Below, in pieces: positions 3,582 through 38,154 of a DNA stretch of 42,689 bases. Source of the stretch: an uncultured Porphyromonadaceae bacterium. Its GTDB lineage: Bacteria; Bacteroidota; Bacteroidia; Bacteroidales; UBA12481. The first letter of the stretch is position 1, and every line of letters begins with the position of its first letter. The DNA is taken from contig CAYXJR010000034.1 of assembly GCA_964465145.1 (NCBI GenBank), forward strand, positions 1 to 42,689, read 5' to 3'. The notes beneath the pieces are model-generated. The model was not told the origin of the DNA. It did no database searches and worked only from the letters and a program-made list of their open reading frames with translations. Both the position numbers and the translations under genes were made by a program.

Positions 3582-4964
3582 CTATTTCCCTCCGATTTGC
3601 ATCTCAGCAACCCGGAAGCTAGGTGCTGTAAATGATTTATTCATGTCGAGATCATTGCCCATCCTGTCGATAGCCATCAGGATATCGCTGGCGCTGCCTG
3701 CAATGGTGAGTCCTTTTACCGGGTGAACCACCTTTCCATTCTCTATCCACAGCCCGCTGGCACCACCGCTGAAATTTCCGTTTACCGGATTGATCCCGTA
3801 TCCTGTAACATCCTTTAGTAAAATTCCCCGCTTTGTATCCCCGATAATTTTTTCCGGGGTATCATTACCCGCCTTAACATAAATGTTGTGAGTTCCTATA
3901 CCTGGAAGGCTGGCAAATCCACCACGTGAAGCATTACCTGTACTTTCCACTCCTGCTCTTTTGGCTGCTATAGTGTTGTAAATAAAGCTTTTCAGTACAC
4001 CCTTTTCAACCAGAATTCGTTTTTGTGTAGGAACACCCTCACCATCAAAAGGCGCACTACCCATACCTTTGGGCCTTGTACCATCATCGATTATTGTCAG
4101 CAGCTCGGAAGCAAATTGCTGATCCAGTGAATTTTTCAGGAAGCTGGCTCCCTGGCTTACCCTTTCACCGTTAATAGCACCCAGGATTCCCCCTATCATT
4201 GAACCTGCTACGGATGGATCGAAGATTACGCTTGCCCGCTGGGTTGATACCATCACCGGATCAATCAATTCTTTTGCCTTAGCAGCTGCACTGTCTGCAA
4301 TTTTCCTGATTGGATCCAGGTCGGCAAAAAACCGCCGTGTACAATACTCCTCTCCGGTGTTTTTCTGTTCACCTTTTTCTGCTACCACACTCACGCCGAT
4401 GGAGCATCCGCATGATCTGTAATTGTTCGAAATGCCATTGGAATTGGCAACAAACACCTCGTAATCACCCTCCCCAAAACTAGCTCCGGAACTTTTTGTG
4501 ATAAGGGAATCCTCTAAAGCCATTTTTTCAAGCTCAAGGGCCATTTGGATCTTATCTTCCATAGAAACCGAGGCAATTTTAGGGTCGTACAAGCCATCAA
4601 CAGGTGTAAAACCCTGGTTGGCTGGCAGGAGGTTATTCTCATCGGCTGTTGTGAGTTTGGCGAATTGAATAGCTTGTTTAAGAGTGTTTTTCAATGACGT
4701 GCCGGTCAGGTCATTACAATGACTAAATCCCATCCTGCCATTTACGAGCACCCTGAATCCCACACCGGCGGAAGAGGCTTCCTCGATGGTTTCTATTTCC
4801 CCGTTAAGTACGTTTATGGATAAGTCGCGGCTGGTTTCAAAATAAACCTCTGCTGCACTTGCTCCCTGCTTCAGACATTGCTGAACAAGTTTTTCGGATA
4901 ATTTTTTATAGTTCATGATGTTTTGTTCTAGATAGTTCGAATCAGGCTTTACTTCCTCCCACAT
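3582..4964 (-). CDS. TldD/PmbA family metallopeptidase, PmbA/TldE-like (no HExxxH)
   Basis: 460-aa ORF with the TldD/PmbA-family C-terminal region (GGxSGG.., NGNFSGGASGLWIENGK). It overlaps the upstream TldD gene by 23 nt, which is the usual paired arrangement. Confidence 0.8.
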   Translation of the reverse strand: MWEEVKPDSNYLEQNIMNYKKLSEKLVQQCLKQGASAAEVYFETSRDLSINVLNGEIETIEEASSAGVGFRVLVNGRMGFSHCNDLTGTSLKNTLKQAIQFAKLTTADENNLLPANQGFTPVDGLYDPKIASVSMEDKIQMALELEKMALEDSLITKSSGASFGEGDYEVFVANSNGISNNYRSCGCSIGVSVVAEKGEQKNTGEEYCTRRFFADLDPIRKIADSAAAKAKELIDPVMVSTQRASVIFDPSVAGSMIGGILGAINGERVSQGASFLKNSLDQQFASELLTIIDDGTRPKGMGSAPFDGEGVPTQKRILVEKGVLKSFIYNTIAAKRAGVESTGNASRGGFASLPGIGTHNIYVKAGNDTPEKIIGDTKRGILLKDVTGYGINPVNGNFSGGASGLWIENGKVVHPVKGLTIAGSASDILMAIDRMGNDLDMNKSFTAPSFRVAEMQIGGK

Positions 4965-6477
4965 TTATTCCGCTTATTCTCACAGTGGGCTGCCCGGCAG
5001 ATACCTCGGCAGCTTGCCCTTTTCCACATATACCCGGGCCAAAATCCAGGTCATTCCCTACAGCATCGATATTTGAGATCACCTCCAGGCATGATCCGAT
5101 CAGGGTAGCACCCCTGATTGGCCTGGTTTTTCTACCATTTTCTATCAGGTAGGCTTCGCGGCATGTGAAGTTGAATACCCCGGTGACCGGGTTCACACTT
5201 CCACCACTGAGGCTTTGCACGTAAATGCCCTTTTTGGTGGATGCGAGAATGTCAGCAGGATCACTCTCCCCCTTGTCGATAAAGGTGTTGGTCATCCTGG
5301 GAATAGGCAGGTAGCGGAATGATTCACGCCGCCCGTTGCCTGTCCGTTCCATGTTCAGCTGCTTAGAGCTCAGGATATCAGTCATATAGCCTTTAAGTAC
5401 ACCTTTTTCAATCAGTACATTTCTTTTTGCCTGGGTACCCTCATCATCAAAATTAATAGTGCCCCTGAAGTTTGGCAGGCTCCCGTCGTCAACCATGGTG
5501 AAGCAATCGCTGGCAACTTTTTGCCCCAGTTTACCGGTAAAGGCACCTATGTCTTTTGCAATATTGTCGGCCTCCAGCGGGTGTCCTACAGCCTCATGAA
5601 CCAGCACCCCGCCCCAGCCGTTCTGCATCACTACATCCATAATTCCTGCCGGAGCTTCCTCAGCATCCAGCATGGCGATGGCCTCCCTGGCAGCCCTCCG
5701 GGCCACCTCTTCAGGACTGACCATATCGAACATCTCAAATCCTGAATGCTTGCTCAGCCTCTCGCGCGACATATGCCTGGCATTCCCATCATCGCTCATG
5801 GTCTCTACAATGAAGAATAGGAGTGGAAGCTCATCCGTCAGATATACCCCTTCAGAATTGGCGATCACCCGTCCACGTACCTCATCGTAATAGTTCACCA
5901 TGGCCATCTTTATGCGGGGATCATAATCCATGGCCGCCTGGTCAGCCCTTTTCATAACCTCAATACGCTTTTCATCTGCAATCTCCAGGAGGGGCATCTT
6001 AACAGTGACGAAAGATTCGCGTTTTGCCGGGCTGATGTCGACAGGCTCGGTAATTGTACCGTTTTTGGCAACGTAAGAAGCCACTTCGGCTGCCCTCATT
6101 AACTTTTCTTCAGTAATTTCATCGGTATAGGCATACCCGGTTTTATTGCCCGATATCACCCTGACACCTGCTCCCTGGCTTATTCCATAGAGCCCGCTTT
6201 TGAATTTCGATTCCTCCATCACGATCTGCCTTGAAACACGGTTTTCCAGATATACGTCGGCAAAATCCCCTCCATTTTTCAATGCCCTGGCTATTACCTT
6301 ATTTAATATCGATTTGTCCATATTCAGTTTTGAAGCTGAAACGGCGGGATCCATAGAGCAGGATACAAGATTAGATAAGATAGCAGGGGTGGCGGCAATC
6401 ATCAGCCCACCCTTAAAGCTAAGCTCAAGGAATTTCCTGCGCGGCATATCCCTTACGCTGAATTTTTCGGTATTCAT
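4942..6477 (-). CDS. tldD: TldD-like metallopeptidase with Tat signal
   Basis: 511-aa ORF containing a HEAVGH zinc motif. The N-terminus (RRKFLELSFKGGLMIAATPA) looks like a twin-arginine signal. Confidence 0.85.
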   Translation of the reverse strand: MNTEKFSVRDMPRRKFLELSFKGGLMIAATPAILSNLVSCSMDPAVSASKLNMDKSILNKVIARALKNGGDFADVYLENRVSRQIVMEESKFKSGLYGISQGAGVRVISGNKTGYAYTDEITEEKLMRAAEVASYVAKNGTITEPVDISPAKRESFVTVKMPLLEIADEKRIEVMKRADQAAMDYDPRIKMAMVNYYDEVRGRVIANSEGVYLTDELPLLFFIVETMSDDGNARHMSRERLSKHSGFEMFDMVSPEEVARRAAREAIAMLDAEEAPAGIMDVVMQNGWGGVLVHEAVGHPLEADNIAKDIGAFTGKLGQKVASDCFTMVDDGSLPNFRGTINFDDEGTQAKRNVLIEKGVLKGYMTDILSSKQLNMERTGNGRRESFRYLPIPRMTNTFIDKGESDPADILASTKKGIYVQSLSGGSVNPVTGVFNFTCREAYLIENGRKTRPIRGATLIGSCLEVISNIDAVGNDLDFGPGICGKGQAAEVSAGQPTVRISGINVGGSKA

Positions 6478-6499: not shown

Positions 6500-6830
6500 A
6501 TTAAGCTGTTAAGGTAGGAAAAAAAGATGAATCATGTTGCATGTTGCAGGTTGCAGGTTGCAAGGCATTGATAAACACTTCTTGAATGATATGGAAAACT
6601 TCGTAGAGACGCATACTTGCGTCTTGAGGTTTCAGGCTTGAGGATAAGTATAAGTAATTAGTAATAAGGTTATATGTAATTTATAAGAGGGATCTCCACC
6701 CTGCTCTGAGATACCAGATAACAGATTTTTTTAGGTCTTCCGTCTTAGTTCTTGTATCTTGTATCTTCTTTTACTCCCTGCTCCCCGTTACCTGTTCCCC
6801 GTTACCTGTTCCCTTCTTACTCCCCCGGTA
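6500..6830. repeat. Mosaic heptanucleotide-periodic repeat tract (ATGTTGC/AGGTTGC, CTTGAGG, ATAAGTA, TCTTGTA, CCCCGTT/ACCTGTT)
   Basis: Direct reading: catgttgcatgttgcaggttgcaggttgcaagg ... tcttccgtcttagttcttgtatcttgtatcttc ... ccccgttacctgttccccgttacctgttccc. A 7-nt phase is maintained across the motifs. Confidence 0.8.
6607..6624. other. Hairpin motif AGACGCA-TACT-TGCGTCT (7-bp stem, 4-nt loop)
   Basis: Perfect inverted repeat seen directly. A near-identical motif GGACGCA-TAAT-TGCGTCC occurs at 42219..42236. Confidence 0.6.
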
Positions 6831-7949
6831 TAACTCGTACTTATTAAACCTGCATTCCAGGGCGCCGTTGAATACTTTTATCTTTCTCGAGGTTCTAAGC
6901 CCGATGAATTTCAGGGCTTCCATATTTGAGCTGATAATCCAGGCATCCCATCCCTCAAAATTGTGCTTCAGATGAGTTCCAATTTTTTCATACAGGGCAT
7001 TGACATTGCTTTTTTCTTCCAGCCGTTCCCCATAGGGAGGATTTATCATTATCAGTCCTTCCGGATCTTTCGATTTGGAATCAAATAAATCCTCACTTTT
7101 CAAAGAGATAATATTACCCAGTCCGGCACGACGGGCATTTCGCATTGCACTATCCAGGGGTTTTGAATCGTTGTCCCGGCCAAGAATTTTACATTCAGGG
7201 GTAATAATCTGGGATTCAGCCTGTTCTTTCAGGTTTTTCCACAGGGTCTGATCATAATCATTCCAGGATTCGAAACCAAAAGTGCGCAATCTGCCCGGGG
7301 CGTATTTCCCAGCTATCATGGCTGCTTCTATAGGGATGGTTCCTGATCCGCACATAGGATCCAGGAATAATGTTTTCTGATCCCAACCGGAAAGACTGAT
7401 CATCCCGGCTGCCAGCACCTCGTTAATGGGTGCGTGGACCTGATCAAGCCTATAGCCTCTTTTGCTGAGAGGCAGCCCGGAGCTGTCTAAAGAAATGGTG
7501 CAACGGGTATCTGCAATATGTACATTGATTTGCACATCGGGCCGGATAACATCTACGGAGGGCCTGATTCCGAATTGCTCCCGGAACTTGTCGGCAATGG
7601 CATCCTTCGCTTTTAAGGCCACATATTTGGAGTGGCGGAAAACATCACCATTGCAAACGGCATCTATGGCAAACGACTGTTTGAAGGTGAAATAATCATT
7701 CCAGGGTATCTTTTTTACCTTTTCGTAGAGCTGAACATCGTTTCTTGCATTGAAAACCGCAATGGGCTTAAGGACCTTGAGTGCAGTCCGCAGATGCAGA
7801 TTACTTTTATACAGCAGATCCTGATCGCCAAGATATTTTACTGCCCTGTTAATGATTTGTATATCAGTAGCACCCAGGGCTGATAGCTCTTTTGCCAGGA
7901 TTTCTTCCAACCCAAAAAGGGTGGTGGCGACCATTTCAAAGTTGTTCAA
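6771..7949 (-). CDS. THUMP-domain class I SAM-dependent RNA methyltransferase (RlmL/N6-m2G-type)
   Basis: 392 aa with DPMCGSGTIPIEAAM (SAM-binding site) and an NPPYGERL catalytic motif. There is an N-terminal THUMP-like region. The last ~15 codons are encoded by the heptamer repeat (CCCCGTT/ACCTGTT). Confidence 0.8.
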   Translation of the reverse strand: MNNFEMVATTLFGLEEILAKELSALGATDIQIINRAVKYLGDQDLLYKSNLHLRTALKVLKPIAVFNARNDVQLYEKVKKIPWNDYFTFKQSFAIDAVCNGDVFRHSKYVALKAKDAIADKFREQFGIRPSVDVIRPDVQINVHIADTRCTISLDSSGLPLSKRGYRLDQVHAPINEVLAAGMISLSGWDQKTLFLDPMCGSGTIPIEAAMIAGKYAPGRLRTFGFESWNDYDQTLWKNLKEQAESQIITPECKILGRDNDSKPLDSAMRNARRAGLGNIISLKSEDLFDSKSKDPEGLIMINPPYGERLEEKSNVNALYEKIGTHLKHNFEGWDAWIISSNMEALKFIGLRTSRKIKVFNGALECRFNKYELYRGSKKGTGNGEQVTGSRE

Positions 7950-13357: not shown

Positions 13358-14137
13358 ATGGCTAAAATATATTATGTTGGCGACTGGGCAGTATTAACCG
13401 GCCCGGTGTTTGCCGAAAGTCCATTTCAATATGCACATAAAGGGCTGGAGATATTTAATTATGGTGTATGGCTAAAGGATGCCCTGGAGTCGGATGGGAA
13501 ACATGAGGTCAAATCGGTGGCTTCATGGGACTTCTATAATCTTGGCCCGGGGGAATATGAAGCCATTTTGAATGATTATGATGTACTGATATTCAGCGAC
13601 TTTGAGAGTAAGCTTTTTCAGCTCTCCCCGGAGTTTTTCGACAGGAAGAAATTTGGCCAGGGCATCCTGACTTTCCCCGACCGTATCCGGCTTACTACTG
13701 AAGCGGTGCAAAATGGCCTGGGGCTGATGTTCCTGGGCGGATGGTATTCCTTCACCGGGGAGGCTGGGAAAGGAGGCTGGGGCAGAACCATGCTCAGGGA
13801 TATCCTGCCTGTGAAATGCCTCGACTATGAGGATCTGGTAGAAAGTACTGAAGGTTATTTTCCTCTGTTGACAGAACTTGGGAAAAGCACCTTTAAGAAC
13901 CTTATTTTGGATGATATTCCCCCAATTTTGGGATATAATGAAACCAGGGAGATTGAAGAAGGACAAGTTCTCCTTCGTGTGCAGGAAACAGGTGATCCCC
14001 TTGTGGCAGTAAGGCAGGTGGGAAAAGGGAAAGTGCTGGCCTATACCTCCGATCCAGCGCCCCACTGGGGCCTGAACTTTGTTTACTGGGAACATTATAA
14101 TGAGTTCTGGCTGAATTGCCTGGAGTTGGTGCTTTGA
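13358..14137 (+). CDS. Hypothetical protein, class-I glutamine-amidotransferase-like/ThuA-like fold (putative)
   Basis: 259 aa, start 11 nt after the symporter stop (operon). Weak resemblance to putative GATase1-like proteins. Low-certainty call. Confidence 0.4.
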   Translation: MAKIYYVGDWAVLTGPVFAESPFQYAHKGLEIFNYGVWLKDALESDGKHEVKSVASWDFYNLGPGEYEAILNDYDVLIFSDFESKLFQLSPEFFDRKKFGQGILTFPDRIRLTTEAVQNGLGLMFLGGWYSFTGEAGKGGWGRTMLRDILPVKCLDYEDLVESTEGYFPLLTELGKSTFKNLILDDIPPILGYNETREIEEGQVLLRVQETGDPLVAVRQVGKGKVLAYTSDPAPHWGLNFVYWEHYNEFWLNCLELVL

Positions 14138-14266
14138 GTTGCGGGTGACGGGTGACGGGTGACGGGTGACGGGTGACGGGTGACGGGTGACGGGTGACGG
14201 GTTGCAGGTGACGGGTGACGGGTGACAGGTGACGGGTGACGGGTGACGGGTGACAGGTGACGGGTT
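14138..14266. repeat. Tandem heptamer repeat (GGTGACG)n, about 18 copies with GGTGACA/GGTTGCA variants
   Basis: gttgcgggtgacgggtgacgggtgacgg... read directly. It starts at the first nucleotide after the upstream stop codon. Confidence 0.95.
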
Positions 14267-14291: not shown

Positions 14292-15554
14292 ATGCTTGTT
14301 GGCACATTCAAAATTGACATTACTCCCCTTCCGTGTGTTGAACTTTGCGGTTTTGCAAAAAGGCCGCAGCCATCAAACCATATTTTAGACCCATTGTATG
14401 TCAGGATTCTTTATTTGGATGCCGGGGGAGAAAAATTCCTGCTGATAAACCCCGACCTGATAGGTGTAGAGGGCAGTTTTGTACAGAGGATAAGATCAGA
14501 ATTAAATATTGATTTTGATATTCCTGAGGAGCACATTCAGATTTTTGCTACCCATACCCACAGCGGGCCGGGGACGGTTCACCTGAATTTTTGCGGTGAG
14601 TATGCCCCTGATTATATTGATTTCCTGCAGGATAAAATATTGGAAGGATGCCGGGCTGCCATGAAGGATCCTGAACCCTGCACGCCTGAGTTCCGGGAGG
14701 CTTCCCTAGAGCTGGGCCGGAACAGAAGGTATGTTAGTGATGATCCTTTAGATAATCCCTTAAGGATACTCTCCTGGAGAAAGCATGGAGGAGAGCTCAA
14801 ATCTGTTCTTCTGAATTATGCCATGCATCCTGTATGCCTGAAGGGTACAGGTATAAGCGCCGATTATCCCGGATGGGTAAGCAAGGCCCTGGGTGAGGAA
14901 CTGCCCGGCCAGCCACTGGTGTTATTCGGATTAGGTGCAGCCGGGGATATTGATCCACCTGGAGTGGGTGTTAGCTATGAACAAATGCAGGACTGGGGCA
15001 GCCGGATAGCCGGAACTGCAATGGATTGCTTGTTGAATGGCAGCAATGAAATTACCCTGCCGGATGGACCACTTATTAGGCTTGAGTCGGCAACGGTTGA
15101 AATTCCTCTCAGGTCTTTAGATATTGATGAGATAGACCGGTATGCCGAAAAATATCTGTCCGACAGTAAATGGAATGATGAGTTCGGGCCGGTTTTTCCC
15201 CAGGCTGTGGAAAAGTGGAGAGAGGACATGAAAAGGAAGGTGCAAAATGGCCCGGCAAGCACCAAAGCTATTGAACTGAACTGTCTGATGATTGGGCAAC
15301 TAGCAATCCTGTTTGTTAATGCCGAACTGTTTTCAGAATTTGAGAACCTTGTCCGCTCAAAAATCCATACTCCAATTATGGTGATCTCTTGCACTAACGG
15401 GCTCGAAGGTTATCTGCCCGACAGGAAAGAGTATGCCCATGGCGGTTATGAGGTTGAGACAGCTATTTTTTTCTACAACTCATTTTTGCCAGAGGCGGGA
15501 TCGCTGGAAATGTTAGCGGGGAAGTCAGTAAGGCTGATAAATAGATTTTTATAG
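14292..15554 (+). CDS. Neutral/alkaline ceramidase N-terminal-domain-like hydrolase (putative)
   Basis: 420 aa. The FATHTHSGPG motif resembles the neutral ceramidase active-site region. Assignment is from memory of the family. Confidence 0.5.
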   Translation: MLVGTFKIDITPLPCVELCGFAKRPQPSNHILDPLYVRILYLDAGGEKFLLINPDLIGVEGSFVQRIRSELNIDFDIPEEHIQIFATHTHSGPGTVHLNFCGEYAPDYIDFLQDKILEGCRAAMKDPEPCTPEFREASLELGRNRRYVSDDPLDNPLRILSWRKHGGELKSVLLNYAMHPVCLKGTGISADYPGWVSKALGEELPGQPLVLFGLGAAGDIDPPGVGVSYEQMQDWGSRIAGTAMDCLLNGSNEITLPDGPLIRLESATVEIPLRSLDIDEIDRYAEKYLSDSKWNDEFGPVFPQAVEKWREDMKRKVQNGPASTKAIELNCLMIGQLAILFVNAELFSEFENLVRSKIHTPIMVISCTNGLEGYLPDRKEYAHGGYEVETAIFFYNSFLPEAGSLEMLAGKSVRLINRFL

Positions 15555-17941: not shown

Positions 17942-17944
17942 GCT

Positions 17945-18304: not shown

Positions 18305-19426
18305 TTAGCGTCTGATAAAAAGGTTTTTATAGGTTGCAAAATGTGCTTTGTACCAAGACTTATCTCCCAACCTACGGATGAGAGCTTTCCGCTCTGCTTT
18401 GTTGTAAATGGCTATCACGGGCAATGTGACATATCTTTTCAGGCGTGTGCCAAAATACAAAGCTATTCTGAATGCAGAATGCCAGGCAGGATGATTAATA
18501 AAAAACAGAATTTGACGGAGGTATCTTCTGGCCTGAGAATTATTTTCGTATTGCAGGCTGTCGGGGCGATCAAGCAATTCATGAGAAACAATAATATGGG
18601 CATTTAGGCGCTTGAAATAATGACCGAAATCCTTGCTGGTTTGTAAACAATTGGCCCTTTGGGAAAGTAAAAACAAATCATAGCTATGACGGAGAGACAG
18701 TTTTCTTTCCTTAAAAGCCTTATCATTCATCTGAGCATTCATCATATTATGAATAATTTGATGCCTATCTGAGAGGATAAAGGCTTCTCCTTCATGGATT
18801 AATTTTCTTTTCTCCGTGTCTATCAGATCAAAGTTGAATTTCCGGTCGTATGGCTTCGATACTGGCTGCCGGTGCACTTCCACAGCAGCTAACAAAGTAT
18901 CATTACGTAAACGGGGATAATGCTTTATCTCTTTTAATATATCGGTACTGAAAGGAATGGGATAATAATATCCCAATTCCCCTAATAACTCTACTGCCGG
19001 GAGTAATTCCTCCCAGGCAACAAGGAAGTCAATATCCCCGATCATGCGTTCGCCATGATCCCGATAGAGCCCATCCATCATGTGGGCAGTACCTTTAAGG
19101 AAAATAGGAGAAATGCCTTTCGAATTGAGCAGCTTAATAATATCACTTATCTGGGCTAGTATTTCCTTATTCCTCCGGGAGTTGGTTTCATGCAGATGGT
19201 CAAGATGTACGATCAGGTCAGCAGGTAATTCGTTCAGGAGCTTGCTGTCTCTCAGCTGGATGTACAGAGCCGGAAGTACCAGTTGCTGGCTGCTCACCAA
19301 TACCAGATGTTCCCATTCCAACTCACCGCTCTGCAGGATTTTTCTAATCTCCGGTATGCGTTGCGGGTAATGCCTGAGAGTAAGGCAGTTTCCAACAAAG
19401 AACAATGTATCCTTATAGTTCATCAT
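18305..19426 (-). CDS. Nucleotidyltransferase-superfamily protein (NTP_transf_5-like, uncharacterised)
   Basis: 373 aa with the minimal pol-beta NTase signature ...FLKGTAHMMDGLYRDHGERMIGDIDFLV (hG[GS]...DhD). Its start overlaps the kinase stop by 14 nt (aATGATGAACTATAA), implying translational coupling. Confidence 0.75.
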   Translation of the reverse strand: MMNYKDTLFFVGNCLTLRHYPQRIPEIRKILQSGELEWEHLVLVSSQQLVLPALYIQLRDSKLLNELPADLIVHLDHLHETNSRRNKEILAQISDIIKLLNSKGISPIFLKGTAHMMDGLYRDHGERMIGDIDFLVAWEELLPAVELLGELGYYYPIPFSTDILKEIKHYPRLRNDTLLAAVEVHRQPVSKPYDRKFNFDLIDTEKRKLIHEGEAFILSDRHQIIHNMMNAQMNDKAFKERKLSLRHSYDLFLLSQRANCLQTSKDFGHYFKRLNAHIIVSHELLDRPDSLQYENNSQARRYLRQILFFINHPAWHSAFRIALYFGTRLKRYVTLPVIAIYNKAERKALIRRLGDKSWYKAHFATYKNLFIRR

Positions 19427-20555
19427 TGAACAGTTTACGCACAGTACTCACCATTTGTTCGTTATCGCTGTATGTTAATCTGTAGCAGGGTAGTTCGATG
19501 AACCAGTCCATAAAGCTCTCTACATTTTCATATATCGGGGAGATCCATGAATCCGTTACCAGTTTTTGAAATGCGATATGTTTTGGTTCTTCAGTCAGTT
19601 CCAGTTCAGCACCCGGGGAATAATTAATAAAAACAATTGCCTTAACCGGGGCAGCCGTGTTTTCAGGATCAGCCGTAATGGGAGGGGGAAGAAAAATCAT
19701 TCTTGTGGCAGCATCCTTATAATGGACTTCTCTGTGTTCCCCGAATTCAGGGAATGAGTTTTTAATAAGATCCCAAGCTCCTTCCTTTATTGAAATGGCG
19801 GAGGGGAATAGTCGTAATTCTCTTGTTGCAGCCTCGATAGGCACAAAATCATCGGCTATAACATCAAAACCATTGGCAAGAAGTATAGCCAGACTTGTAC
19901 TTTTCCCGCTTCCTGATTCACCGGGCATAATTATGCTGTTTTTCCCATCGCTGAGGGCTGATGCATGGAAAACCCCTATCCAGTCTTCTTCCTTCCTGTC
20001 ATAAACTTTATTCAGGAATTCCGCCGAAACCTTGCCCTGGAAGAAGTGTACCTCATCCATACCCCATGGGCCAATCAGCTTATCATCAGACCGCAAATAG
20101 AGATTATCCTCAATCCTGAAAAGCATAAATGTGTGATAATCGTCTTTTACCTCATTTGTTTCCAGGTGGGCAAGTTTTGGGTGGAACATTTCCTCCAGCT
20201 TCTTATGGTAATATTGAAAGCAGAAGCTGCATCCAGCGAACTGGTAATATTTCTCTGAATAAATTCCACCCTCAGGATTGATCTTAACTGAATCCTGGTG
20301 AGTATGATTAAGGATATTTTGAAAAGGCTTATTGTTTAATTCTATCAGGGAACTGACTTCCCCCACAAACTTTTGGGCATCAGCGTTTGGCAATCCATAG
20401 GTATTGGAGCACCAAAAGGCAATATTATCAAGGGGAATATTATTATTTAACTGATCAAAAACCCGGTAAGCAGGCTCCTCCATCCACACGTACTTGTTGC
20501 TTTTCTCAAACCATACAAGTGATTTGTCCTCCAGGGATCTGCAAAGTATTCTCAT
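19413..20555 (-). CDS. PqqD/RRE-like N-terminal domain fused to an HPr-kinase/phosphorylase-like P-loop kinase
   Basis: 380 aa. Residues ~10-80 (LVWFEKSNKYVWMEEPAYRVFDQL...IAFWCSNTYGLPNADAQKFVGEVSSLIELN) follow the PqqD pattern. A Walker-A motif GESGSGKST followed by an Asp-rich region matches the HprK C-terminal domain. Confidence 0.7.
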   Translation of the reverse strand: MRILCRSLEDKSLVWFEKSNKYVWMEEPAYRVFDQLNNNIPLDNIAFWCSNTYGLPNADAQKFVGEVSSLIELNNKPFQNILNHTHQDSVKINPEGGIYSEKYYQFAGCSFCFQYYHKKLEEMFHPKLAHLETNEVKDDYHTFMLFRIEDNLYLRSDDKLIGPWGMDEVHFFQGKVSAEFLNKVYDRKEEDWIGVFHASALSDGKNSIIMPGESGSGKSTSLAILLANGFDVIADDFVPIEAATRELRLFPSAISIKEGAWDLIKNSFPEFGEHREVHYKDAATRMIFLPPPITADPENTAAPVKAIVFINYSPGAELELTEEPKHIAFQKLVTDSWISPIYENVESFMDWFIELPCYRLTYSDNEQMVSTVRKLFNDEL

Positions 20556-20640: not shown

Positions 20641-20682
20641 GGATGTTGGAGCGCAGCGACAGTCCCGGCTTGCCGGGAACAG
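20641..20682. repeat. 42-bp inverted-repeat element, left copy (contains hairpin TCCCGG-cttg-CCGGGA)
   Basis: ggatgttggagcgcagcgacagtcccggcttgccgggaacag. The reverse complement of 23140-23181 matches at 41/42 positions. Confidence 0.9.
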
Positions 20683-20900
20683 TTAACAGATGACAGATAA
20701 CGGATAGCTTTGGTCTTAATTCTTTGATCTTGATTTCTTAAACAAGATTCTTGCATCTTGCGTCTTGCATCTTGTATCTTGTATTTTGCGTCTCCGGTCC
20801 CTCCGTCCCCTTTTCTCCCGCGTCACTCGTCACCCGTCACTTGTCACTCTTTTCCGTCCCCTCGTCCCTTTGTCCCTCTATTTCCCTTTTCTCCTCCACC
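20683..20900. repeat. Mosaic heptamer-periodic tract (ACAGATR, TCTTGYR, CGTCACY, TCGTCCC...) extending into the flotillin 3' coding end
   Basis: ttaacagatgacagataacggat ... cttgcatcttgcgtcttgcatcttgtatcttgtattttgcgtct ... cgtcactcgtcacccgtcacttgtcactc read directly. Confidence 0.8.
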
Positions 20901-22261
20901 TTCTTGCCTTTCAGATAATCAGGTAGTTCGAGGCCGGCCATCCTGAATAGTTCTTCGAATGGAGGTATGGAGCCGAGCATCCCGGAAAGAAAGTTTGCAG
21001 ATGTTGGGGATTTTCCGTCTTTTCCCGACGACATATTATCCCAGACGGTTATCTTATCGATCTTAAGGTTCTTAATGGCTTCAACCTGTGTTTTCACCAG
21101 CTCGGGCAGCTTATCGGCTATCATCAGCATAACGGCAGCGGAAGGATCTTCGTTGGCAGCATCCACCAGCTTCTCAAAACCGCTGGCCTCTTTGCTCAGG
21201 ATCTCGTAAATACCACGGGCCTCAGCATCCATCTTCAGGAAGATAGCATCTGCTTCCCCTTTGGCATGCCGCCTTGTCTGTTCGGCAATAGCTTCGGCAT
21301 TGATCTCAACTTTTTCCTTATCGATCTGGGCAGGCACCACGATGTTGGCATTCTGAGTGGCCCTGTCCCTCTCGGCACGGGCCTTTTCAGCATCTTGTTC
21401 AGCGGCATAAGCCTCTTCGAGGGCTTTGGCTTGTGTGACTTTCTCAGCCACAACAGCTTTCCTTTCGGCTTCTGCTTCTTTCTCACGCCTGGTGGCATTG
21501 GAGTTGGCAATAGTGATTTTAGCGGTGTTTTCCCCTTCCACAGCTGATGCATCGGCGGATGCAACCTGTATCCTCTGATCCTGATGGGCCTGGGCTTCAC
21601 CGATCGATCCATCTCTGTTCTTTTCGGCAACGCTTTTCTTGGCATCATTTATAGCTTTAGCGGCAGCTTCTTTACCCAAAGCTTCAATATATCCGGATTC
21701 ATCATTGATATCGGTTACGTTCACGTTGATCAGCTTAAGTCCGATCTTTTTTAGTTCAGCCTCAACGTTGGAAGATACAGCCGCCAGGAACTTATCCCTG
21801 TTAGAGTTGATCTCCTCAATATCCATTGTTGCTACCACCAGCCTCAACTGACCGAAAATGATGTCCTTGGCCAGGTTGCTGATGTCCTGCTGTGAGAGGC
21901 CAAGAAGCCTTTCTGCTGCATTGGTCATGACACCCGGCTCTGTGGAAATACCAACAGTAAAGCGGGATGGAACATCAACACGGATATTCTGCTTACTCAA
22001 AGCACTGGTTAGATTGATTTCAATGGATAGCGGTGTGAGATCGAGGAATGAATAATCCTGGATCACCGGCCAGATAAAGGCTGCCCCCCCATGTATGCAT
22101 TTGGCAGAACGGTACTCTGCTTCCCCGCCTTTACCAATCTTACCATAAATAACAAGAATACGGTCGGAAGGGCATCTCTTGTACCTTCTGAAGAATGAAA
22201 TGATGAGAATGAAAACGAAAAGTGCTGCTAAAACCAGCAGTATAAGTGTGTATTGTCCCAT
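20837..22261 (-). CDS. Flotillin-like SPFH/band-7 protein (YqiK-like)
   Basis: 474 aa with an N-terminal TM, an SPFH domain, then a long Ala/Glu/Lys-rich coiled-coil (AEAERKAVVAEKVTQAKALEEAYAAEQDAEKARAERDRA). This is typical flotillin architecture. Confidence 0.85.
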   Translation of the reverse strand: MGQYTLILLVLAALFVFILIISFFRRYKRCPSDRILVIYGKIGKGGEAEYRSAKCIHGGAAFIWPVIQDYSFLDLTPLSIEINLTSALSKQNIRVDVPSRFTVGISTEPGVMTNAAERLLGLSQQDISNLAKDIIFGQLRLVVATMDIEEINSNRDKFLAAVSSNVEAELKKIGLKLINVNVTDINDESGYIEALGKEAAAKAINDAKKSVAEKNRDGSIGEAQAHQDQRIQVASADASAVEGENTAKITIANSNATRREKEAEAERKAVVAEKVTQAKALEEAYAAEQDAEKARAERDRATQNANIVVPAQIDKEKVEINAEAIAEQTRRHAKGEADAIFLKMDAEARGIYEILSKEASGFEKLVDAANEDPSAAVMLMIADKLPELVKTQVEAIKNLKIDKITVWDNMSSGKDGKSPTSANFLSGMLGSIPPFEELFRMAGLELPDYLKGKKVEEKREIEGQRDEGTEKSDK

Positions 22262-22873: not shown

Positions 22874-22904
22874 GCTGGGAGGTATTTAATTATGTTTTAA
22901 TATC

Positions 22905-23139
22905 ACCCTTAAAAATACTAAATAATTCCAAATTACAACTGTATTCTCGCTCACTTCGTTCGCTGGAAATTACCAAGGCTTGTCGAAGCGAAGCGGAGAT
23001 CCCGATAGCGAAGCGTATCGGGAAGGCTTAAGGCATAAGACTTTAGTATAAGTATGAGTTTTAAGTTTTGAGGTTATAAGGAAAGTTATTATTCGTAACC
23101 TTACATAACCTCTCGTAACCTTTTTTAATCACCCGTCAT
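22905..23139. repeat. Mosaic heptamer-periodic/REP-like intergenic tract (TCGCTCACTTCGTTCGCTG, GCGAAGCG, ATAAGTA/TAAGTTT, CGTAACC motifs)
   Basis: Read directly. It shares a 20-mer with 40716-40736 and the ATAAGTA/TAAGGTT vocabulary with 6645-6680 and 40760-40800. Confidence 0.6.
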
Positions 23140-23181
23140 CTGTTCCCGGCAAGCCGGGACTGTCGCTGCGCTCCAGCATCC
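23140..23181. repeat. 42-bp inverted-repeat element, right copy
   Basis: ctgttcccggcaagccgggactgtcgctgcgctccagcatcc is the reverse complement of 20641-20682 with one mismatch. Confidence 0.9.
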
Positions 23182-23252
23182 TATATCCTCATACATCCTA
23201 AACCTTAATAGATTATTTCGAATTAATTTCGTACATTTAGAAAAAACCTGTC

Positions 23253-26767: not shown

Positions 26768-27538
26768 ATGGATTCCATCCCGGTTATACAATGCGAAAGT
26801 TTGACCAAAAGTTTTGGTCAACTGAAAGCAGTAGATGGATTGAACCTTGAGATCAGAAAAGGTGAAATACTTGGTTTTTTGGGTCCTAATGGGGCAGGAA
26901 AGACAACCACAATCAACATGATCTGTGGTTTATTGAACCCGGATAGTGGAACTGTAAAAATATTAGGGAAAGATCTAAGGAAGATTCAGGAATTGCGATT
27001 TAAGATTGGCTTATGTCCGCAGGAAAATATCTTCTGGCCAAAACTCACAGGCCTCGAGCAGCTTCAGTTCATGGCAAGGATGTACGGGATTGGGATAAAA
27101 GAAAGCAGGGTGCGGGCCTATCAGCTGCTTGATCAACTAGGCCTAAAAGGGAAAGCCAGCAGCGTTACTGCCAAATGGTCGGGAGGGATGAAGCGCAGAT
27201 TGAACATTGCCCTTGCCCTGATCCATGATCCTGAAATACTAATTCTTGATGAGCATGAAGCAGGGCTTGATCCGCAAAGCAGGGTTATGGTGCGTGAATT
27301 TATCAAGTCATTTGTGCCGCACAAAACTGTCCTGCTCACGACACACAATATGGACGAAGCCGACAGGATGTCGGAACGGGTGGCAGTTATAGATAGTGGG
27401 AAAATAATTGCACTGGGAACCCCGGGTGAGCTCAAAGCCTTAATTGGAGGGGAACAACAGATAAAAGAGTGGGTTGTAAGGGAAAAAACTCTTGAAGATG
27501 TTTTTATTCAGTTAACAGGAAAAAAACTTAGGTCATGA
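26768..27538 (+). CDS. ABC transporter ATP-binding protein
   Basis: Walker A GPNGAGKTT, signature SGGMKRRLNIA and Walker B ILILDE. Confidence 0.9.
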   Translation: MDSIPVIQCESLTKSFGQLKAVDGLNLEIRKGEILGFLGPNGAGKTTTINMICGLLNPDSGTVKILGKDLRKIQELRFKIGLCPQENIFWPKLTGLEQLQFMARMYGIGIKESRVRAYQLLDQLGLKGKASSVTAKWSGGMKRRLNIALALIHDPEILILDEHEAGLDPQSRVMVREFIKSFVPHKTVLLTTHNMDEADRMSERVAVIDSGKIIALGTPGELKALIGGEQQIKEWVVREKTLEDVFIQLTGKKLRS

Positions 27539-28680
27539 AGATCCTGGCTGTAATAATGAAATCTCTCAGTGAGCAATCCCGACAAATCTGGGTCGTGATC
27601 CTCACAATTTCCATGGCCCCGTTTTTTGTGGGAATTTATTACCTTATGTGGGAATCCACCAAGCTAAGCATGGATGTCGAGATTGTTAACCTCGACAAGG
27701 GATATGGTGGGTTTGATTATGGAAAGGAAATCAGCCAATTTGTTATTTCCCAATCATCCGATGAACTCCCTGTTAACTTTCATCTGAGTGCAAGTCGGGA
27801 TAATGCCCTCAATCAGATAAGGAACAAAAAATCTGATGCTATTCTTATCCTGCCTGAGGATTTCAGCGAGAAGGCAGTGATGTTGGGCAGGGGCGAAAAT
27901 GTGCAGATACCATTTGAACTTACTGGAGATCTTTCAGATATCAATTATATGCTGGCTGCTACCTGGACCTATGAGCTGATAGGTGCTTTTATTAGTGAAA
28001 ATACAGGGATTAAAACCCCATTTGAATTCAGGGAAACCCCGGCTGGTGTTTCGGGGGAGATGAATGAGTTCGACCTTTATGTTCCGGGCTTGCTGATCCT
28101 GTCAACCGTTATGCTGATGTTTACGGCGGCAATTGCCTTCGTGCGGGAGCCTGAACAGAAAACAATTATCCGACTTAAGTTATCACAGCTAAAGAACTGG
28201 GAATTTATTACCGGAGTCAGCCTGGTTCAAATGTTTATCGGATTTTTCTCTATTCTTCTCACTCTGGCTGTTGCAGCTGCATTGGGATTTGAATTCAGGG
28301 GGTCATGGGGAAGTTTCTTAATCGTGACAACACTCACCTGTCTCTCAATAATCGGGTTTAGCCTGATTGTAGCGGCTCTCACACGTACTGTTAACCAGGT
28401 ACTGGTAGTTGGTAATTTCCCTCTTTTCCTGTTTATGTTTTTTACAGGAGCTATGATGCCTGTTCACGGACCAACACTATTCAGTTTTGCATCGTATGAT
28501 TTTACTCTGCCAGGACTAATGTCGCCCTACCATGCCGTCAGCGCACTGAAAAAAATCAGCATATTCGAAGCCTCACTTGGGGAAATATGGCCGGAATTAA
28601 CCTGCCTGGCCGGGATCACGGTTATTTATTTCCTTATCGGAGCCTTGCTCTACCGCCGACAGCACCTACGGCTATTATAA
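27535..28680 (+). CDS. ABC-2 type transporter permease
   Basis: 381 aa. After a large N-terminal extracytoplasmic domain there are about 5 further TMs. A 4-nt overlap with the ATPase gene indicates coupling. Confidence 0.75.
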   Translation: MKILAVIMKSLSEQSRQIWVVILTISMAPFFVGIYYLMWESTKLSMDVEIVNLDKGYGGFDYGKEISQFVISQSSDELPVNFHLSASRDNALNQIRNKKSDAILILPEDFSEKAVMLGRGENVQIPFELTGDLSDINYMLAATWTYELIGAFISENTGIKTPFEFRETPAGVSGEMNEFDLYVPGLLILSTVMLMFTAAIAFVREPEQKTIIRLKLSQLKNWEFITGVSLVQMFIGFFSILLTLAVAAALGFEFRGSWGSFLIVTTLTCLSIIGFSLIVAALTRTVNQVLVVGNFPLFLFMFFTGAMMPVHGPTLFSFASYDFTLPGLMSPYHAVSALKKISIFEASLGEIWPELTCLAGITVIYFLIGALLYRRQHLRLL

Positions 28681-28878
28681 CAGATAACAGATGACAGATA
28701 ACAGATAACAGATGACAGATGACAGATAACAGATGACGGATGACTTAAAAGAAGGATGTTGGATTTTAGATTTTAAATGTCGCTCTTTTAACTTAACTTA
28801 TTTTCCTTAAGACTTAAAGCTTTAAACCTACTTTTGCCTTCTGCCTTCTGCCCTCTGCCCTCTGCCTTATCTTTCGTC
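28681..28878. repeat. About 28 consecutive degenerate heptamers filling an entire convergent intergenic spacer (CAGATAA/CAGATGA ... TTAAAGC ... CTGCCTT/CTGCCCT)
   Basis: cagataacagatgacagataacagatgacagatgacagataacagatgacggatgac...ctgccttctgccctctgccctctgcctt. A 7-nt phase is kept from the stop at 28680 to the stop at 28879. Confidence 0.9.
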
Positions 28879-30219
28879 TTATTCTTTTGCGAAGCAATAA
28901 AGGCTTTTAAATCCCCGGAGGAAGAGCTCATCGCCAATAACCACAGGACTGGCATGGAAAGTGTCATCCAGGGTGTTGGAGGCTAATAGCTCAAATTCCG
29001 GGCCTGCCTTGAGGACACTAACGGCTCCTGTGGCAACAATATAAATTTTACCGCCAGCACCGGTTGGGGAGGAGAAAAGGGTGCTGATTCCCTCCACTTT
29101 TTCAGTAGCGTATTTAACTTCTCCGGTTTTTGCGTCAAGGCATGTCAGGAAGCCATTGTTGGTTCTTATGAAATAGAGGTAACCATCCATAAGAAGGGGG
29201 CTGGGGGCATATGGAGTGTCCTGGTTGTATTCCCAGAGGATCGTTTTGGTACCGGTAATATCTCCTTTAGCCTTAGCCAGGTCGATGGCCATCAGAGCCG
29301 TGCCTCTATATCCGCTCATAACGTAGAGAATCCCATCTCCATATACAGGGCTGGGTATCACATTCCTGGTCAAGCCTGTACATTCCCAAATGATTTCTCC
29401 TGTTTCCAGGTCATAGCTTCTCACCTTATTGGTGGCACTGGTGATTACCTGGGTTTTTCCTCCGGCTTGAACAATCAGTGGTGTTGTCCAGGAAGTAATT
29501 TCATCACGCTCAGTTTTCCAGATCTCTTCCCCGGTGGTTTTATCCAAAGCCACAATAAATGATTCACCCTGATGATCCCAGAGGACTACAATTTTATCCC
29601 CATAAAGTGCAGGTGAGCTGCCTTCACCGAAACTCATCACTTTTTCCATCTGTCCCCAATCCTTTTCCCAGAGCACATTACCTTCAAAATCAAGACAGAA
29701 TAGTCCTCGGGAACCGAAATATGCAAATATATGTTCACCATCGGTCACTGGTGAATTTGAAGCCCAACTACCCAATTCATGAGTGCTTTCGAGTGGAAGT
29801 TCTTCTTTGACAGTGCGTTTCCAGTTGATTTTCCCGGTGTTTTTATCTACTGAAACGACCATGAATTGGTGGATGAGTTCAGTTCCGCTGGAAGGAGGCC
29901 CCATCCTTTTTCCTTCCTGGCTTATTTCTTCTTCTCCTTCTTCCTGCACAGGTTTTCTATCTGTGGCTACGGCGGTTAACAGGATGATCTGCTCGCCCCA
30001 GACAATAGGGGTGGCATGCCCTTTACCTGGGATTTCTGTTTTCCATTTCAGGTTTTTAGATTCCCCAAATTCAGTTGGGGGATTTCCGGCCAAAGCAGCA
30101 CCGGTTTCCAGAGGGCCGCGCCATTGAGGCCAGTTGGATTGTGATTGTTGAGCCTTAATAATTAGTGATCCGCCAAAAAACAGGATTACTACTAGACCGA
30201 AGAATTTTTTCCCTGACAT
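28879..30219 (-). CDS. PQQ-like beta-propeller repeat protein (BamB-like), secreted
   Basis: 446 aa with a signal peptide and repeated hydrophobic-G/W-D beta-propeller blades. Confidence 0.7.
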   Translation of the reverse strand: MSGKKFFGLVVILFFGGSLIIKAQQSQSNWPQWRGPLETGAALAGNPPTEFGESKNLKWKTEIPGKGHATPIVWGEQIILLTAVATDRKPVQEEGEEEISQEGKRMGPPSSGTELIHQFMVVSVDKNTGKINWKRTVKEELPLESTHELGSWASNSPVTDGEHIFAYFGSRGLFCLDFEGNVLWEKDWGQMEKVMSFGEGSSPALYGDKIVVLWDHQGESFIVALDKTTGEEIWKTERDEITSWTTPLIVQAGGKTQVITSATNKVRSYDLETGEIIWECTGLTRNVIPSPVYGDGILYVMSGYRGTALMAIDLAKAKGDITGTKTILWEYNQDTPYAPSPLLMDGYLYFIRTNNGFLTCLDAKTGEVKYATEKVEGISTLFSSPTGAGGKIYIVATGAVSVLKAGPEFELLASNTLDDTFHASPVVIGDELFLRGFKSLYCFAKE

Positions 30220-35148: not shown

Positions 35149-35555
35149 CTATTTAAACTCCGGCTTGTTCCATGGTATCATTCCCTCATTCTTCATTTGC
35201 TGGTTATATAATTCGTGAAAGGGTTTAACCTTACTCATCGGGACGAATTCATTCACCATTAAAGGGCGGGCTTCCATCCACCATTTTTCATAGGCTTCCA
35301 TCAGTTCAGCCTTAATTTCAGGGTACTGGTCAATAACATTTAATGTTTCCCCGGGATCGGCCTGGACATCATATAGTTCATTCAAGCCCACCAGGCGGAA
35401 TTGTTCATTTCTGACAGCAAAATTGACATATTGGAAGGAATCTGGTTCGGCGCCAACAGGCCAGCGGCCCTGGTGAAAGATTCTATAACGGTTGAGCAGG
35501 CGCATAAGCAAAGAAAAATGCTGGCGGTTGTTAGGATTTTTCTTATTGTTTTCAT
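35149..35555 (-). pseudogene. Sulfatase gene remnant: signal peptide fused out of frame to C-terminal ~115 aa, with the catalytic core deleted
   Basis: ATG at 35555 encodes lipoprotein signal MKTIRKILTTASIFLCLCACS. A different frame from 35511 encodes a typical arylsulfatase C-terminus (LYDVQADPGETLNV...). Total length is about 135 aa, against about 480-520 aa for intact sulfatases. Confidence 0.6.
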
Positions 35556-35632
35556 TTGTTACTCGTTATTCGTCAATTGTCACTTTGCATCCCCCTTTTT
35601 TTGTCACCCGTCACCTGTCACTCGTCACTATT

Positions 35633-37927: not shown

Positions 37928-38154
37928 GACAATCAGGATTTAGGGAGAATTGAGAATTAATAGAAATTAAAAATACAACTTCTGAACCGGATTATCAATT
38001 GGTTGGAAGTTGGAGGTTGTTGGATAAAGAGGATATTAGATGTTGAAGACATCGCTGGGTCTTTCGTCCTTTAACTTGTATCTTATTTTCGTTCCCACGT
38101 TCCCAAGTCCCCAATTCCCTATTTTTCCTACCTTAGCTTTTCAAATCAAAATCA
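37928..38154. repeat. Heptamer-periodic divergent intergenic tract (GAGAATT, GGTTGGA/AGTTGGA, CGTTCCC/ACGTTCC/CAAGTCC...)
   Basis: ggagaattgagaattaatagaaattaaaaat ... cgttcccacgttcccaagtccccaattccc read directly. Confidence 0.6.

Follow-up and report, generated by a model that had tools for sequence, protein, structure and literature searches.

Drifting heptanucleotide tandem repeats in the intergenic spacers of an uncultured Porphyromonadaceae bacterium

The stretch of DNA analyzed here, referred to as the window, comprises 42,689 nt from an uncultured Porphyromonadaceae bacterium (GCA_964465145.1, contig CAYXJR010000034.1, positions 1-42,689, forward strand). At 14138..14266 it contains a tandem array of a 7-nt unit, GGTGACG, designated the main array. 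This array begins right after the TGA stop of a GATase1-like gene (13358..14137) and precedes the ATG at 14292 by 26 nt; the stop codon (14135-14137) is followed by GTTGC and then by GGGTGAC repeats. Similar tracts adjoin genes for PDH E1, TldD/PmbA, an RlmL-type methyltransferase, a sodium:solute (SSF-family) symporter, the GATase1-like protein, an SPFH protein, an ABC-2 permease, a BamB-like protein, GH95, an aminotransferase, SUI1 and EamA, all of which are ordinary housekeeping genes. We found that about one third of the spacers in the window are built from drifting 7-base tandem repeats. An original prediction had described these tracts as a propagating repeat family in an apparent Bacteroidota genome. 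The host assignment was correct, as the nearest genomes were Bacteroidota/Bacteroidales metagenome-assembled genomes (MAGs), with 72-84% identity of the GATase1-like protein. The closest relative was MAG CSMAG_468 (locus L002; about 84% protein identity), and a more distant relative (L003) was also compared. In total, the sample consisted of the 42.7 kb window and 16.7 kb of this one closest relative.

Arrays were identified with Tandem Repeats Finder (TRF), a lag-7 z-score was calculated for each of 23 spacers, and a sliding scan covered periods 5-11. TRF placed the main array at 14142-14265 with period 7, 17.7 copies, 91% matches and the consensus CGGGTGA, a rotation of GGTGACG, in agreement with the predicted number of about 18 copies. 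When all spacers were pooled, autocorrelation was 0.327, 0.310 and 0.317 at lags 7, 14 and 21 over a baseline of about 0.275, whereas coding DNA had a lag-7 identity of 0.253 and no signal. This comparison of intergenic and coding DNA had been proposed with the original prediction, and in the window it gave the anticipated result. The sliding scan detected six period-7 segments and none with period 5, 6, 8, 9, 10 or 11. Lag-7 z-scores between 2.8 and 14.4 were obtained for 8 of the 23 spacers:

Spacer 14138-14291: z 14.4
Spacer 28681-28878: z 11.9 (lag-7 identity 0.634)
Spacer 6478-6770: z 7.2
Spacer 20556-20836: z 6.7
Spacer 35512-35632: z 5.1
Spacer 37928-38154: z 4.8
Spacer 22874-23252: z 3.3
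Spacer 41119-41263: z 2.8

Besides the main array, TRF reported eleven period-7 arrays, and seven spacers other than that at 14138 carried such arrays:

6536: GTTGCAG
6750: TCTTGTA
6775: TCCCTGT, which fits a 14-mer better
20678: AACAGAT
20749: TCTTGCA
20821: CGTCACT
28680: ACAGATG, 9.3 copies
28831: CTTCTGC
35603: GTCACCC
41194: TCATAAT
42154: AAGGCAA

The tracts predicted at 14138-14266 and 28681-28878 were thus recovered, as were most of the other spacers named in the original prediction; however, 22905-23139 and 41119-41263 were weak, and 40689-40779 had a z-score of -0.4 and a TRF period of 10. The repeats at 40689-40764, just after the SUI1 stop, have a period of about 10 rather than 7 (AGGGGATTA x2.3 and GTGATTCCAG x3.2) and are the sole non-heptamer short tandem arrays found in a window spacer. 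All arrays were restricted to intergenic DNA and the last 12-23 codons of three open reading frames (ORFs; RlmL-like, SPFH and EamA). Printing the sequence in 7-nt blocks revealed that a single phase is kept across whole spacers, up to about 30 units, as the word drifts by single substitutions. Several arrays also carry 14-, 21- or 28-nt higher-order blocks. For example, identity in the array at 28680 was 0.955 at lag 21 and 0.897 at lag 7, and in the array at 6775 it was 0.885 at lag 14 and 0.727 at lag 7; a better match at lag 14 or 21 than at lag 7 is the mark of multi-unit block duplication. The window had 0.14 tracts per kb and CSMAG_468 had 0.18, about 15-19x higher than the 0.009 per kb of 79 other genome loci. 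No tracts were found in the 3 kb of the same genome to the right of the window.

Independent cover was sought through seven exact tract-flanking proteins (the protein of 35149..35511 had no record), and contigs were drawn from ENA, JGI and Logan assemblies of different samples. Contig L343 was 100% identical to the window over 26731-30867, including 28681-28878, and contigs L082-L090 were 100% identical over 38979-42689, including 40689-42240. Over 17939-21748 (including 20556-20915), L346 was 100% identical and L345 had one mismatch, whose position was unmapped. The centre of the main tract (14162-14230) was covered by the window only, because the short-read contigs L001 and L091 break inside it. 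These breaks, together with that of L344 from the same type of k141 assembly, and the presence of the main-tract centre in the window only, could suggest that the tracts are assembly or sequencing artefacts. We consider this extremely improbable: other tracts were reproduced at 100% in assemblies of different samples, a related array occupies the orthologous site in the unrelated MAG CSMAG_468, and breaks at 120-nt tandem repeats are expected of short-read de Bruijn assembly.

The same assemblies bear on whether the tracts could be contingency loci, in which the number of units switches adjacent genes by phase variation. Strain hypervariability of tract length had been suggested as a check, and no tract-length polymorphism was observed in 3-9 independent assemblies, which is a weak test, as all were seemingly from one population. 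Tract sequences were identical among them apart from the unmapped mismatch in L345. Simple-sequence repeats near gene ends, some of them in promoter spacers, would suit such a role, and changes in unit number would alter the C-terminal tails of the three ORFs that run into arrays. However, the flanking genes (RlmL-type methyltransferase, TldD/PmbA, GATase1-like, ABC-2 permease, GH95, aminotransferase) have housekeeping functions, the arrays lie mostly behind stops and not in 5' coding regions or between promoter hexamers, and degenerate arrays are poor substrates for slippage. Phase variation is therefore a very unlikely explanation.

The features of the individual tracts, in order along the window, are:

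6532..6564, plus strand: (GTTGCAG) array, 4 units, preceding the start of the TldD/PmbA gene 4942..6477 (minus strand) by about 55 nt.
6618..6687, no strand: AT-rich degenerate heptamers; 6634-6679 forms a 46-nt module.
6709..6826, minus strand: ACCAGAT/AACAGAT, then TCTTGTA units, then (CCCCGTTACCTGTT) x2.6, where CCCCGTTACCTGTT is the reverse complement of ACAGGTAACGGGG; the array supplies the last ~18 codons of the RlmL-like ORF 6771..7949.
14138..14266, plus strand: the main array, some 18 GGTGACG (GGGTGAC) units; one variant unit reads GGTTGCA and two read ACAGGTG.
20641..20684, no strand: 44-nt core with a hairpin (GGATGTTGGAGCGCAGCGACAGTCCCGGCTTGCCGGGAACAG), merging gradually into ACAGAT heptamers; 23140-23181 is an inverted, almost identical copy.
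20678..20793, no strand: (AACAGAT) x4, degenerate TTGATCT units, then (TCTTGCR/TCTTGTA) x6, in one phase.
20794..20905, minus strand: units rich in C and in one phase, among them (CGTCACY) x4, whose sense-strand reading resembles GGTGACG; the units overlap the last ~23 codons of the SPFH/Band 7 ORF 20837..22261.
22874..23252, no strand: divergent spacer with weak period 7 (z 3.3), containing the AT-rich module, the hairpin core and a CACCCGTCATCTGT fragment.
28676..28744, plus strand: (ACAGATR) array, 9 units, with a higher-order period of 21 nt; the TAA stop of the ABC-2 permease gene 27535..28680 falls within the first unit, and the array is identical in independent contig L343.
28745..28830, no strand: degenerate AT-rich in-phase units that bridge the two arrays of a convergent spacer.
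28831..28878, minus strand: (CTTCTGC) array, 5 units, part of a ~60-nt module common to 42151-42211; read in the sense of the BamB-like gene 28879..30219, whose stop the array abuts, the unit is AAGGCAG.
35548..35632, minus strand: degenerate units, then (GTCACYC) x4, separated by 4 nt from the stop of the GH95 gene 35633..37927; the terminal units read GGTGACG-like on the sense strand, and complementarity of the tract to 14215-14240 is up to 96%.
37998..38137, no strand: divergent spacer with GGTTGGA-type and then C-rich units (z 4.8).
40765..40810, no strand: inverted copy of the 46-nt AT-rich degenerate-heptamer module.
41192..41219, no strand: short (TCATAAT) array, 3.7 units, in a divergent spacer (spacer z 2.8).
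42151..42211, plus strand: (AAGGCAA) x4.4, then AAAGTAGGTT..., supplying the last ~12 codons of the EamA ORF 41264..42187 and continuing past it; 28804-28864 holds this module too, oriented alike relative to its gene.

Some other elements occur among these tracts. Similar palindromic hairpins, AGACGCATACTTGCGTCT and GGGACGCATAATTGCGTCC, were found at 6608-6625 and 42221-42238, both in tract-bearing spacers, and may represent another small dispersed element or a bidirectional terminator. Also, a conserved motif, GGGATCTCCRC..TGCTC, is present amid heptamers at 6688-6712, at 22990-23003 (inverted) and in a syntenic spacer of CSMAG_468 (1387-1410), and the motif TCGCTCACTKCGTTCGCTG occurs at 22946 and 40718.

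Every one of the strongest arrays (z >5) lies in a spacer containing a gene tail, and arrays in divergent spacers are weaker. The original prediction that tracts start at stop codons held well, as arrays were found at or over stops, also at orthologous stops in the relative. In all seven stop-abutting arrays (14142, 28680, 28831, 20821, 35603, 6775 and 42154), the purine/G-rich strand is on the sense strand of the gene whose stop they abut. Their purine fraction was 0.69-0.87, compared with 0.535 for genes, and their GC skew was +0.20 to +0.58, compared with +0.10. The same orientation was observed in two arrays of CSMAG_468 and in two stop-adjacent arrays of a Calditrichia MAG (CAWCNS010000011.1, locus L053). 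The occurrence of words in both orientations had been taken as evidence of propagation; because orientation is uniform relative to genes and thus tracks transcription, occurrence on both strands is no evidence of free propagation. The suggested link to transcript 3' ends stood in that the arrays are tied to gene 3' ends. The possibility that the sense orientation is favoured because it provides stop codons in all frames was rejected as a general rule, since AAGGCAR and the CSMAG_468 word GGGTTAC have no sense-strand stops.

Among independent ACRGRTR arrays located at most 50 nt from a stop, a raw count gave 48 sense and 14 antisense; this count is biased because the ACRGRTR word carries TGA/TAA. 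When arrays were masked before ORFs were called, the ratio was 47:15 (P 6e-5), with 37:10 in contigs with GC >0.5 and 10:5, which was not significant, in contigs with GC <=0.5. The orientation rule therefore holds for the window and is suggestive beyond it and, because the bias comes from high-GC contigs, we do not claim it as general for low-GC lineages.

A subset of the arrays has the potential to form G-quadruplexes (G4). Four G4 motifs were present in the window compared with 0.18 expected, and all were in tracts (14143-14194, 20858-20886, 38094-38119). The motif, a G3 run with a 4-nt loop in at least 4 consecutive units, is found in a subset of words, and most other words have no G-runs. 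The main array fits G3N4; the motif at 20858-20886 is on the sense strand, inside the tract 20794..20905; and that at 38094-38119 is on the minus strand, which is the non-coding strand there, 36 nt upstream of the ATG at 38155. Thus, the motifs either follow a stop by at most 50 nt, in which case they are on the coding strand, or precede a start, in which case they are on the non-coding strand. A G4-aware ViennaRNA fold predicted one quadruplex in the main array. Other searches for RNA structure and signals gave little. Sense-strand folding of four spacers revealed no consistent structure (z -1.55, -2.02, -0.5 and +2.48), and the main array, which had the last of these values, folded worse than all 200 shuffles. 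A long functional hairpin formed by opposed arrays in one spacer was considered and dismissed, since the z-scores were weak (-1.55 and -2.02) and that of 6500-6830 was -0.5. No Rfam matches at the gathering threshold and, with ARAGORN, no tRNA or tmRNA were found in the window. Scans for terminators and for sigma-70 promoters gave the numbers expected from shuffles and no sites in tract spacers; promoters of the Bacteroidota type differ from the sigma-70 consensus.

These observations raise the question of whether the arrays have a function in cis, at the 3' ends and in the leaders of transcripts, acting as G4 or as phased sites for a single-strand nucleic-acid-binding protein of the cold-shock/S1 type (oligonucleotide/oligosaccharide-binding fold) with about 7 nt per monomer. 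Such elements would serve in termination, insulation of adjacent genes or mRNA stability. The sense orientation in seven of seven stop-adjacent arrays, the excess and placement of G4 motifs, which follow the rule described in PMC4692102, the conserved position in CSMAG_468, the tract spacers devoid of canonical terminator hairpins and the masked 47:15 bias of independent arrays are all consistent with this idea, and CspB is known to bind heptamer repeats with one protein per unit (noted in PMC4679880). However, the words are diverse and differ between orthologous arrays, and ACAGATR, TCTTGYA, AAGGCAR and TCATAAT have no G-runs. Besides, the main array is less structured than its shuffles, the independent orientation bias derives from high-GC contigs, arrays occur in divergent promoter spacers as well, Rehm et al. 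found no regulatory role for comparable repeats (PMC4692102) and no candidate binding protein was identified in our analysis. We regard a functional role of this kind, the leading alternative, as possible, though rather unlikely.

Comparison with relatives suggested how the arrays change. Synteny between the window and CSMAG_468 extended over thirteen genes with 53-92% protein identity. Period-7 tracts were present in CSMAG_468 at both of the syntenic gene tails that bear arrays in the window (z 5.0 and 5.8), and syntenic spacers without tracts were tract-free in both. The array at 8904-8977 of CSMAG_468, behind the GATase1-like gene, is orthologous to the main array. After the orthologous stop both arrays start with GTTG; that of the window is homogenised to GGTGACG with one relic GGTTGCA, and that of CSMAG_468 consists of GGTTACG/GGTTCCG with GGTTGCA on its flanks. 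The two genes at this junction are 8 nt apart in L003, compared with about 155 nt in both the window and CSMAG_468. The latter also has a CGTCACT array at the tail of its RlmL gene, and the two RlmL orthologues share the sequence ...ELYRGSKK and then end in 13 and 6 differing array-encoded residues. In addition, degenerate TAAC-containing units precede an ATG in CSMAG_468. The Calditrichia locus had a similar tract density and unrelated words. Its tracts at 10786-11031, 12782-12850 and 14234-14598 contain GGAGCGT, TTTTACC, GAGATGC and CATCCCG x11; a purine-rich array is directly behind the stop of its orthologous GATase1-like gene, and an inverted array pair (GAGATRC then GYATCTC) is behind another stop. 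Another Porphyromonadaceae MAG (CAYGOU010000074.1, locus L006) has about 19 units of GGTTGCT/GGTTACT at 11674-11809, up to the contig end, a word close to GGTTGCA of the window and GGTTACG of CSMAG_468.

Two blocks of the window are absent from the syntenic region of CSMAG_468: 3582-6477, with two genes including TldD/PmbA, and 15555-22873, with five genes including a protein with a type IX secretion system tail and the SPFH protein. Tract-bearing spacers sit at the edges of both. A direct repeat of about 108 nt (about 80% identity) is found at 15558-15665 and 20541-20645; one copy covers the first codons and upstream leader of gene 19413..20555, and a truncated copy is just after gene 14292..15554. 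These copies may mark a rearrangement boundary, the block 15555-22873 being the one absent from CSMAG_468.

Different spacers of the window share words and longer modules. An all-against-all BLAST of spacers gave 39 inter-spacer matches of at least 30 bits, compared with 0.05 in mononucleotide shuffles and 0.15 in 7-nt-block shuffles. When the dominant units of different spacers were compared, allowing rotation and either strand, seven pairs were at distance <=1, whereas 1.3-2.0 were expected (P 0.0007-0.004). The words are therefore more similar than base composition would predict, as had been anticipated. Words named at particular loci in the original prediction were also confirmed there, except that TCTTGYA at 38078 amounts to only about 1.5 units. 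ACAGATG, ACAGGTG and ACGGGTG are single transitions apart, and intermediates are present inside arrays. Degenerate multi-unit stretches of 26-66 nt recur between spacers at 79-98% identity. They include the hairpin core at 20641, inverted at 23140 (42 nt, 97.6% identity), the 46-nt AT-rich module 6634-6679, inverted at 40765-40810 (91%) and also present at 23037-23084 (75%), and the ~60-nt (AAGGCAR)n-AAAGTAGGTT module at 28804 and 42151. The words themselves are neither special nor lineage-specific: four-unit ACRGRTR arrays were found in 32 viral contigs, compared with 33, 27 and 40 for three permuted control patterns, and metagenome arrays of the same words were on contigs with a GC content of 0.34-0.72 (0.26-0.72 with viral-scan loci). 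As the words are not universally favoured, their recurrence in the window needs a within-lineage cause, and since degenerate multi-unit stretches are shared beyond what independent slippage would produce, some copying between loci is real.

Such sharing could also be expected if the tracts were mobile mosaic intergenic elements, similar to bacterial interspersed mosaic elements (BIMEs), REPINs, miniature inverted-repeat transposable elements or the small repeats dispersed in Nostoc; a transposase acting in trans might mobilise such elements. Shared stretches in both orientations (42 nt, 97.6%; 46 nt, 91%, three copies; 35-61 nt, 79-89%), the sharp left boundary of the hairpin core, and the difference in spacer length between L003 and the other two genomes are consistent with insertion. 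The window also contains an IS200-like Y1 transposase with hairpins resembling repetitive extragenic palindromic (REP) sequences, so the genome does propagate small repeats. However, alignments of the three best shared modules, which have few copies in 42.7 kb, revealed no terminal inverted repeats or target-site duplications; apart from the left boundary of the hairpin core, the similarity decays raggedly into heptamers. The shared pieces are short and different for each locus pair, the repeats next to the Y1 transposase bear no relation to heptamer words and modules, and the non-heptamer modules of the window gave no significant match in CSMAG_468, 79 other genome loci or 251 scan-derived loci. 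We consider a mobile element doubtful.

The Y1 transposase gene itself (39421..39891, minus strand; Pfam Y1_Tnp E 3e-26; region 39235-40260) is flanked on both sides by clusters of a ~38-nt repeat with the hairpin ATCCCTACGGGAT, with 53-nt spacing and in both orientations, which looks like a REP-associated tyrosine transposase (RAYT)/REP arrangement. The 94-nt units at 39293-39386 and 40113-40206 are 98% identical, and contig L089 from another sample joins 39431 to 40113, corresponding to deletion of the transposase segment between repeats. Just right of the window, in the same strain, a gene for a 631-amino-acid DDE_Tnp_1 transposase is found (L082, 3721-5616), which again points to a genome with many repeats and insertion sequences.

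Cyanobacterial short tandemly repeated repetitive (STRR) heptanucleotides were reportedly described by Mazel et al. in 1990 as STRR1 (CCCCAGT), STRR2 (TTGGTCA) and STRR3 (CAACAGT). Like STRR sequences, the window has tandem heptamers at many intergenic sites of one genome, and several word families, some of them hairpin-capable (PMC4692102, PMC2670836), but its host is not a cyanobacterium. Tandems of CCCCAGT, TTGGTCA and CAACAGT were absent from the window and CSMAG_468, with singletons at chance level; the likeness to STRR noted earlier thus applies to the type of repeat and not to its canonical words.

The G-rich heptamer repeats reported by Rehm et al. (2015) in Xanthomonas (GGGAATC) and Nostoc PCC 7120 (GGGGAYT) are about 90% intergenic, nearer to the upstream ORF, rare between divergent genes and adjacent to housekeeping genes. 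They occupy the same gene junctions in related species with extensive length and sequence variation, no function was identified, and the strand of the G4-forming heptamers depends on their position, being the coding one when they follow a stop by no more than 50 nt and the non-coding one when they precede a start (PMC4692102). The tracts of the window are similar in being intergenic 7-nt tandems, 0-50 nt from or over a stop with the G-rich strand coding, or upstream of an ORF with the G-rich strand non-coding, weaker between divergent genes and in some inverted pairs. They also share the housekeeping neighbours, the same junctions in relatives with varying sequence, and the G3N4 geometry of GGGTGAC. 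In contrast, the window has no GGGAATC or GGGGAYT tandems and belongs to another phylum, G4 folding is here a prediction, and many words, most without G-runs, grade into each other within a single spacer.

MacGregor (2015) described TAACTGA and other heptamer repeats, with larger assemblages in spacers of Gramella, Aequorivita, Elizabethkingia, Flexibacter and Paludibacter, and heptamer repeats also in Beggiatoaceae and Cyanobacteria; some relatives had the same neighbourhood with short repeat-free spacers, and contigs ended in repeats (PMC4679880). The window likewise shows spacer-filling heptamers in Bacteroidetes, a repeat-free relative and contigs ending in repeats, but its strong arrays abut stops, whereas TAACTGA repeats lie in forward orientation a few nt upstream of starts, its words are different and its host is an uncultured Bacteroidales. 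TAACTGA tandems were absent from the window and CSMAG_468 (6 singletons, 5.2 expected). A likeness of TAACAGA/GAACAGT to TAACTGA or CAACAGT was not accepted, because one mismatch among 14 rotations and strands of many words is within chance.

As summarized in two later papers (PMC4679880, PMC4692102), Mrazek, Guo and Shah (2007) found heptanucleotides to be the commonest long simple-sequence repeats, perhaps owing to the polymerase footprint, with a sporadic distribution, and proposed polymerase slippage in a 7-nt register as their origin. The tracts resemble these long simple-sequence repeats (5-11 nt) as 7-nt head-to-tail tandems in non-coding DNA with sporadic, lineage-specific abundance; relative to what these summaries convey, the window differs in its Bacteroidales host, mosaic multi-word spacers and sharing between loci. 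Compared with REP/BIME and REPIN elements (PMC3116915), which are also short intergenic mosaic repeats in both orientations and have a counterpart in the Y1-associated hairpins, the heptamers are direct tandems rather than palindromes, the main array is unstructured and the words are unrelated to the hairpins flanking Y1. The earlier statement that no description was known thus needs revision, as heptamer arrays of Bacteroidetes (PMC4679880) and the class and its placement rules (PMC4692102; Mrazek et al. 2007) have been published; our literature search found no description specific to Bacteroidales. Since the published words are absent as tandems, the arrays are the same kind of repeat but fall in no named sequence family.

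We think it probable that the tracts are STRR-type heptanucleotide long simple-sequence repeats that are turned over by in-register slippage and occasionally copied between loci. The observations behind this reading are the 7-nt register, the in-phase drift, the higher-order blocks, the differently homogenised orthologous arrays and the identity between loci. Single units and multi-unit blocks would be gained and lost through unequal exchange or through replication slippage in register, both when arrays form and as they turn over, and re-amplification of point mutants would amount to concerted evolution. They would grow up to selected sequence, the stop of the upstream gene on one side and the promoter or leader of the downstream gene on the other, and for this reason some ORFs would read a few variable codons from an array. 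A junction would keep its array for a long time. Stop-adjacent arrays are probably transcribed as 3' untranslated or inter-cistronic RNA, with the purine/G-rich strand in the mRNA. Ectopic copying, through gene conversion or template switching, would move multi-unit stretches and embedded hairpin modules between spacers and, as an occasional event, would account for the shared vocabulary. The original prediction of a propagating family is therefore retained with regard to shared vocabulary and copied stretches, and slippage remains the main process; its preference for propagation over local slippage is not supported in view of the in-phase drift, the transition intermediates, the 14-, 21- and 28-nt blocks and the different homogenisation of orthologous arrays in CSMAG_468. 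Most likely, the arrays are tolerated, nearly neutral spacer DNA, and G4 or transcript-3'-end effects are possible for GGGTGAC-type arrays.

Several points weigh against this reading. Slippage was deduced rather than directly observed, and the assemblies, seemingly of one population, showed no length polymorphism. The position kept over about 16% protein divergence and the orientation in seven of seven cases also fit a functional element. This reading does not account for the 7-nt register or for the restriction to some lineages, and the sample is 42.7 kb and not a genome. One could also imagine that the arrays and hairpin modules form a lineage-specific, transcription-oriented mosaic that is actively copied between gene tails, where a protein with a 7-nt footprint would recognise it as an insulator or 3'-end element. 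This combination appears improbable; if it were true, the placement rules shared by Bacteroidales, Calditrichia, Xanthomonas and Nostoc would point to a general bacterial mechanism working in a 7-nt register.

The tracts represent a known kind of repeat in a new lineage, uncultured Bacteroidales, with its own set of words, and do not overturn current understanding. In practical terms, the arrays break short-read assemblies, and several housekeeping proteins receive variable array-encoded C-terminal tails, which matters for annotation. The finding bears on a question that has stood since STRR sequences were described, namely why some lineages fill their spacers with 7-nt repeats, at stops and on a fixed strand. 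The window and CSMAG_468 form a pair in which homologous arrays are homogenised to different words, and a third relative provides the empty site; with these, array birth, concerted evolution and copying between loci become measurable.

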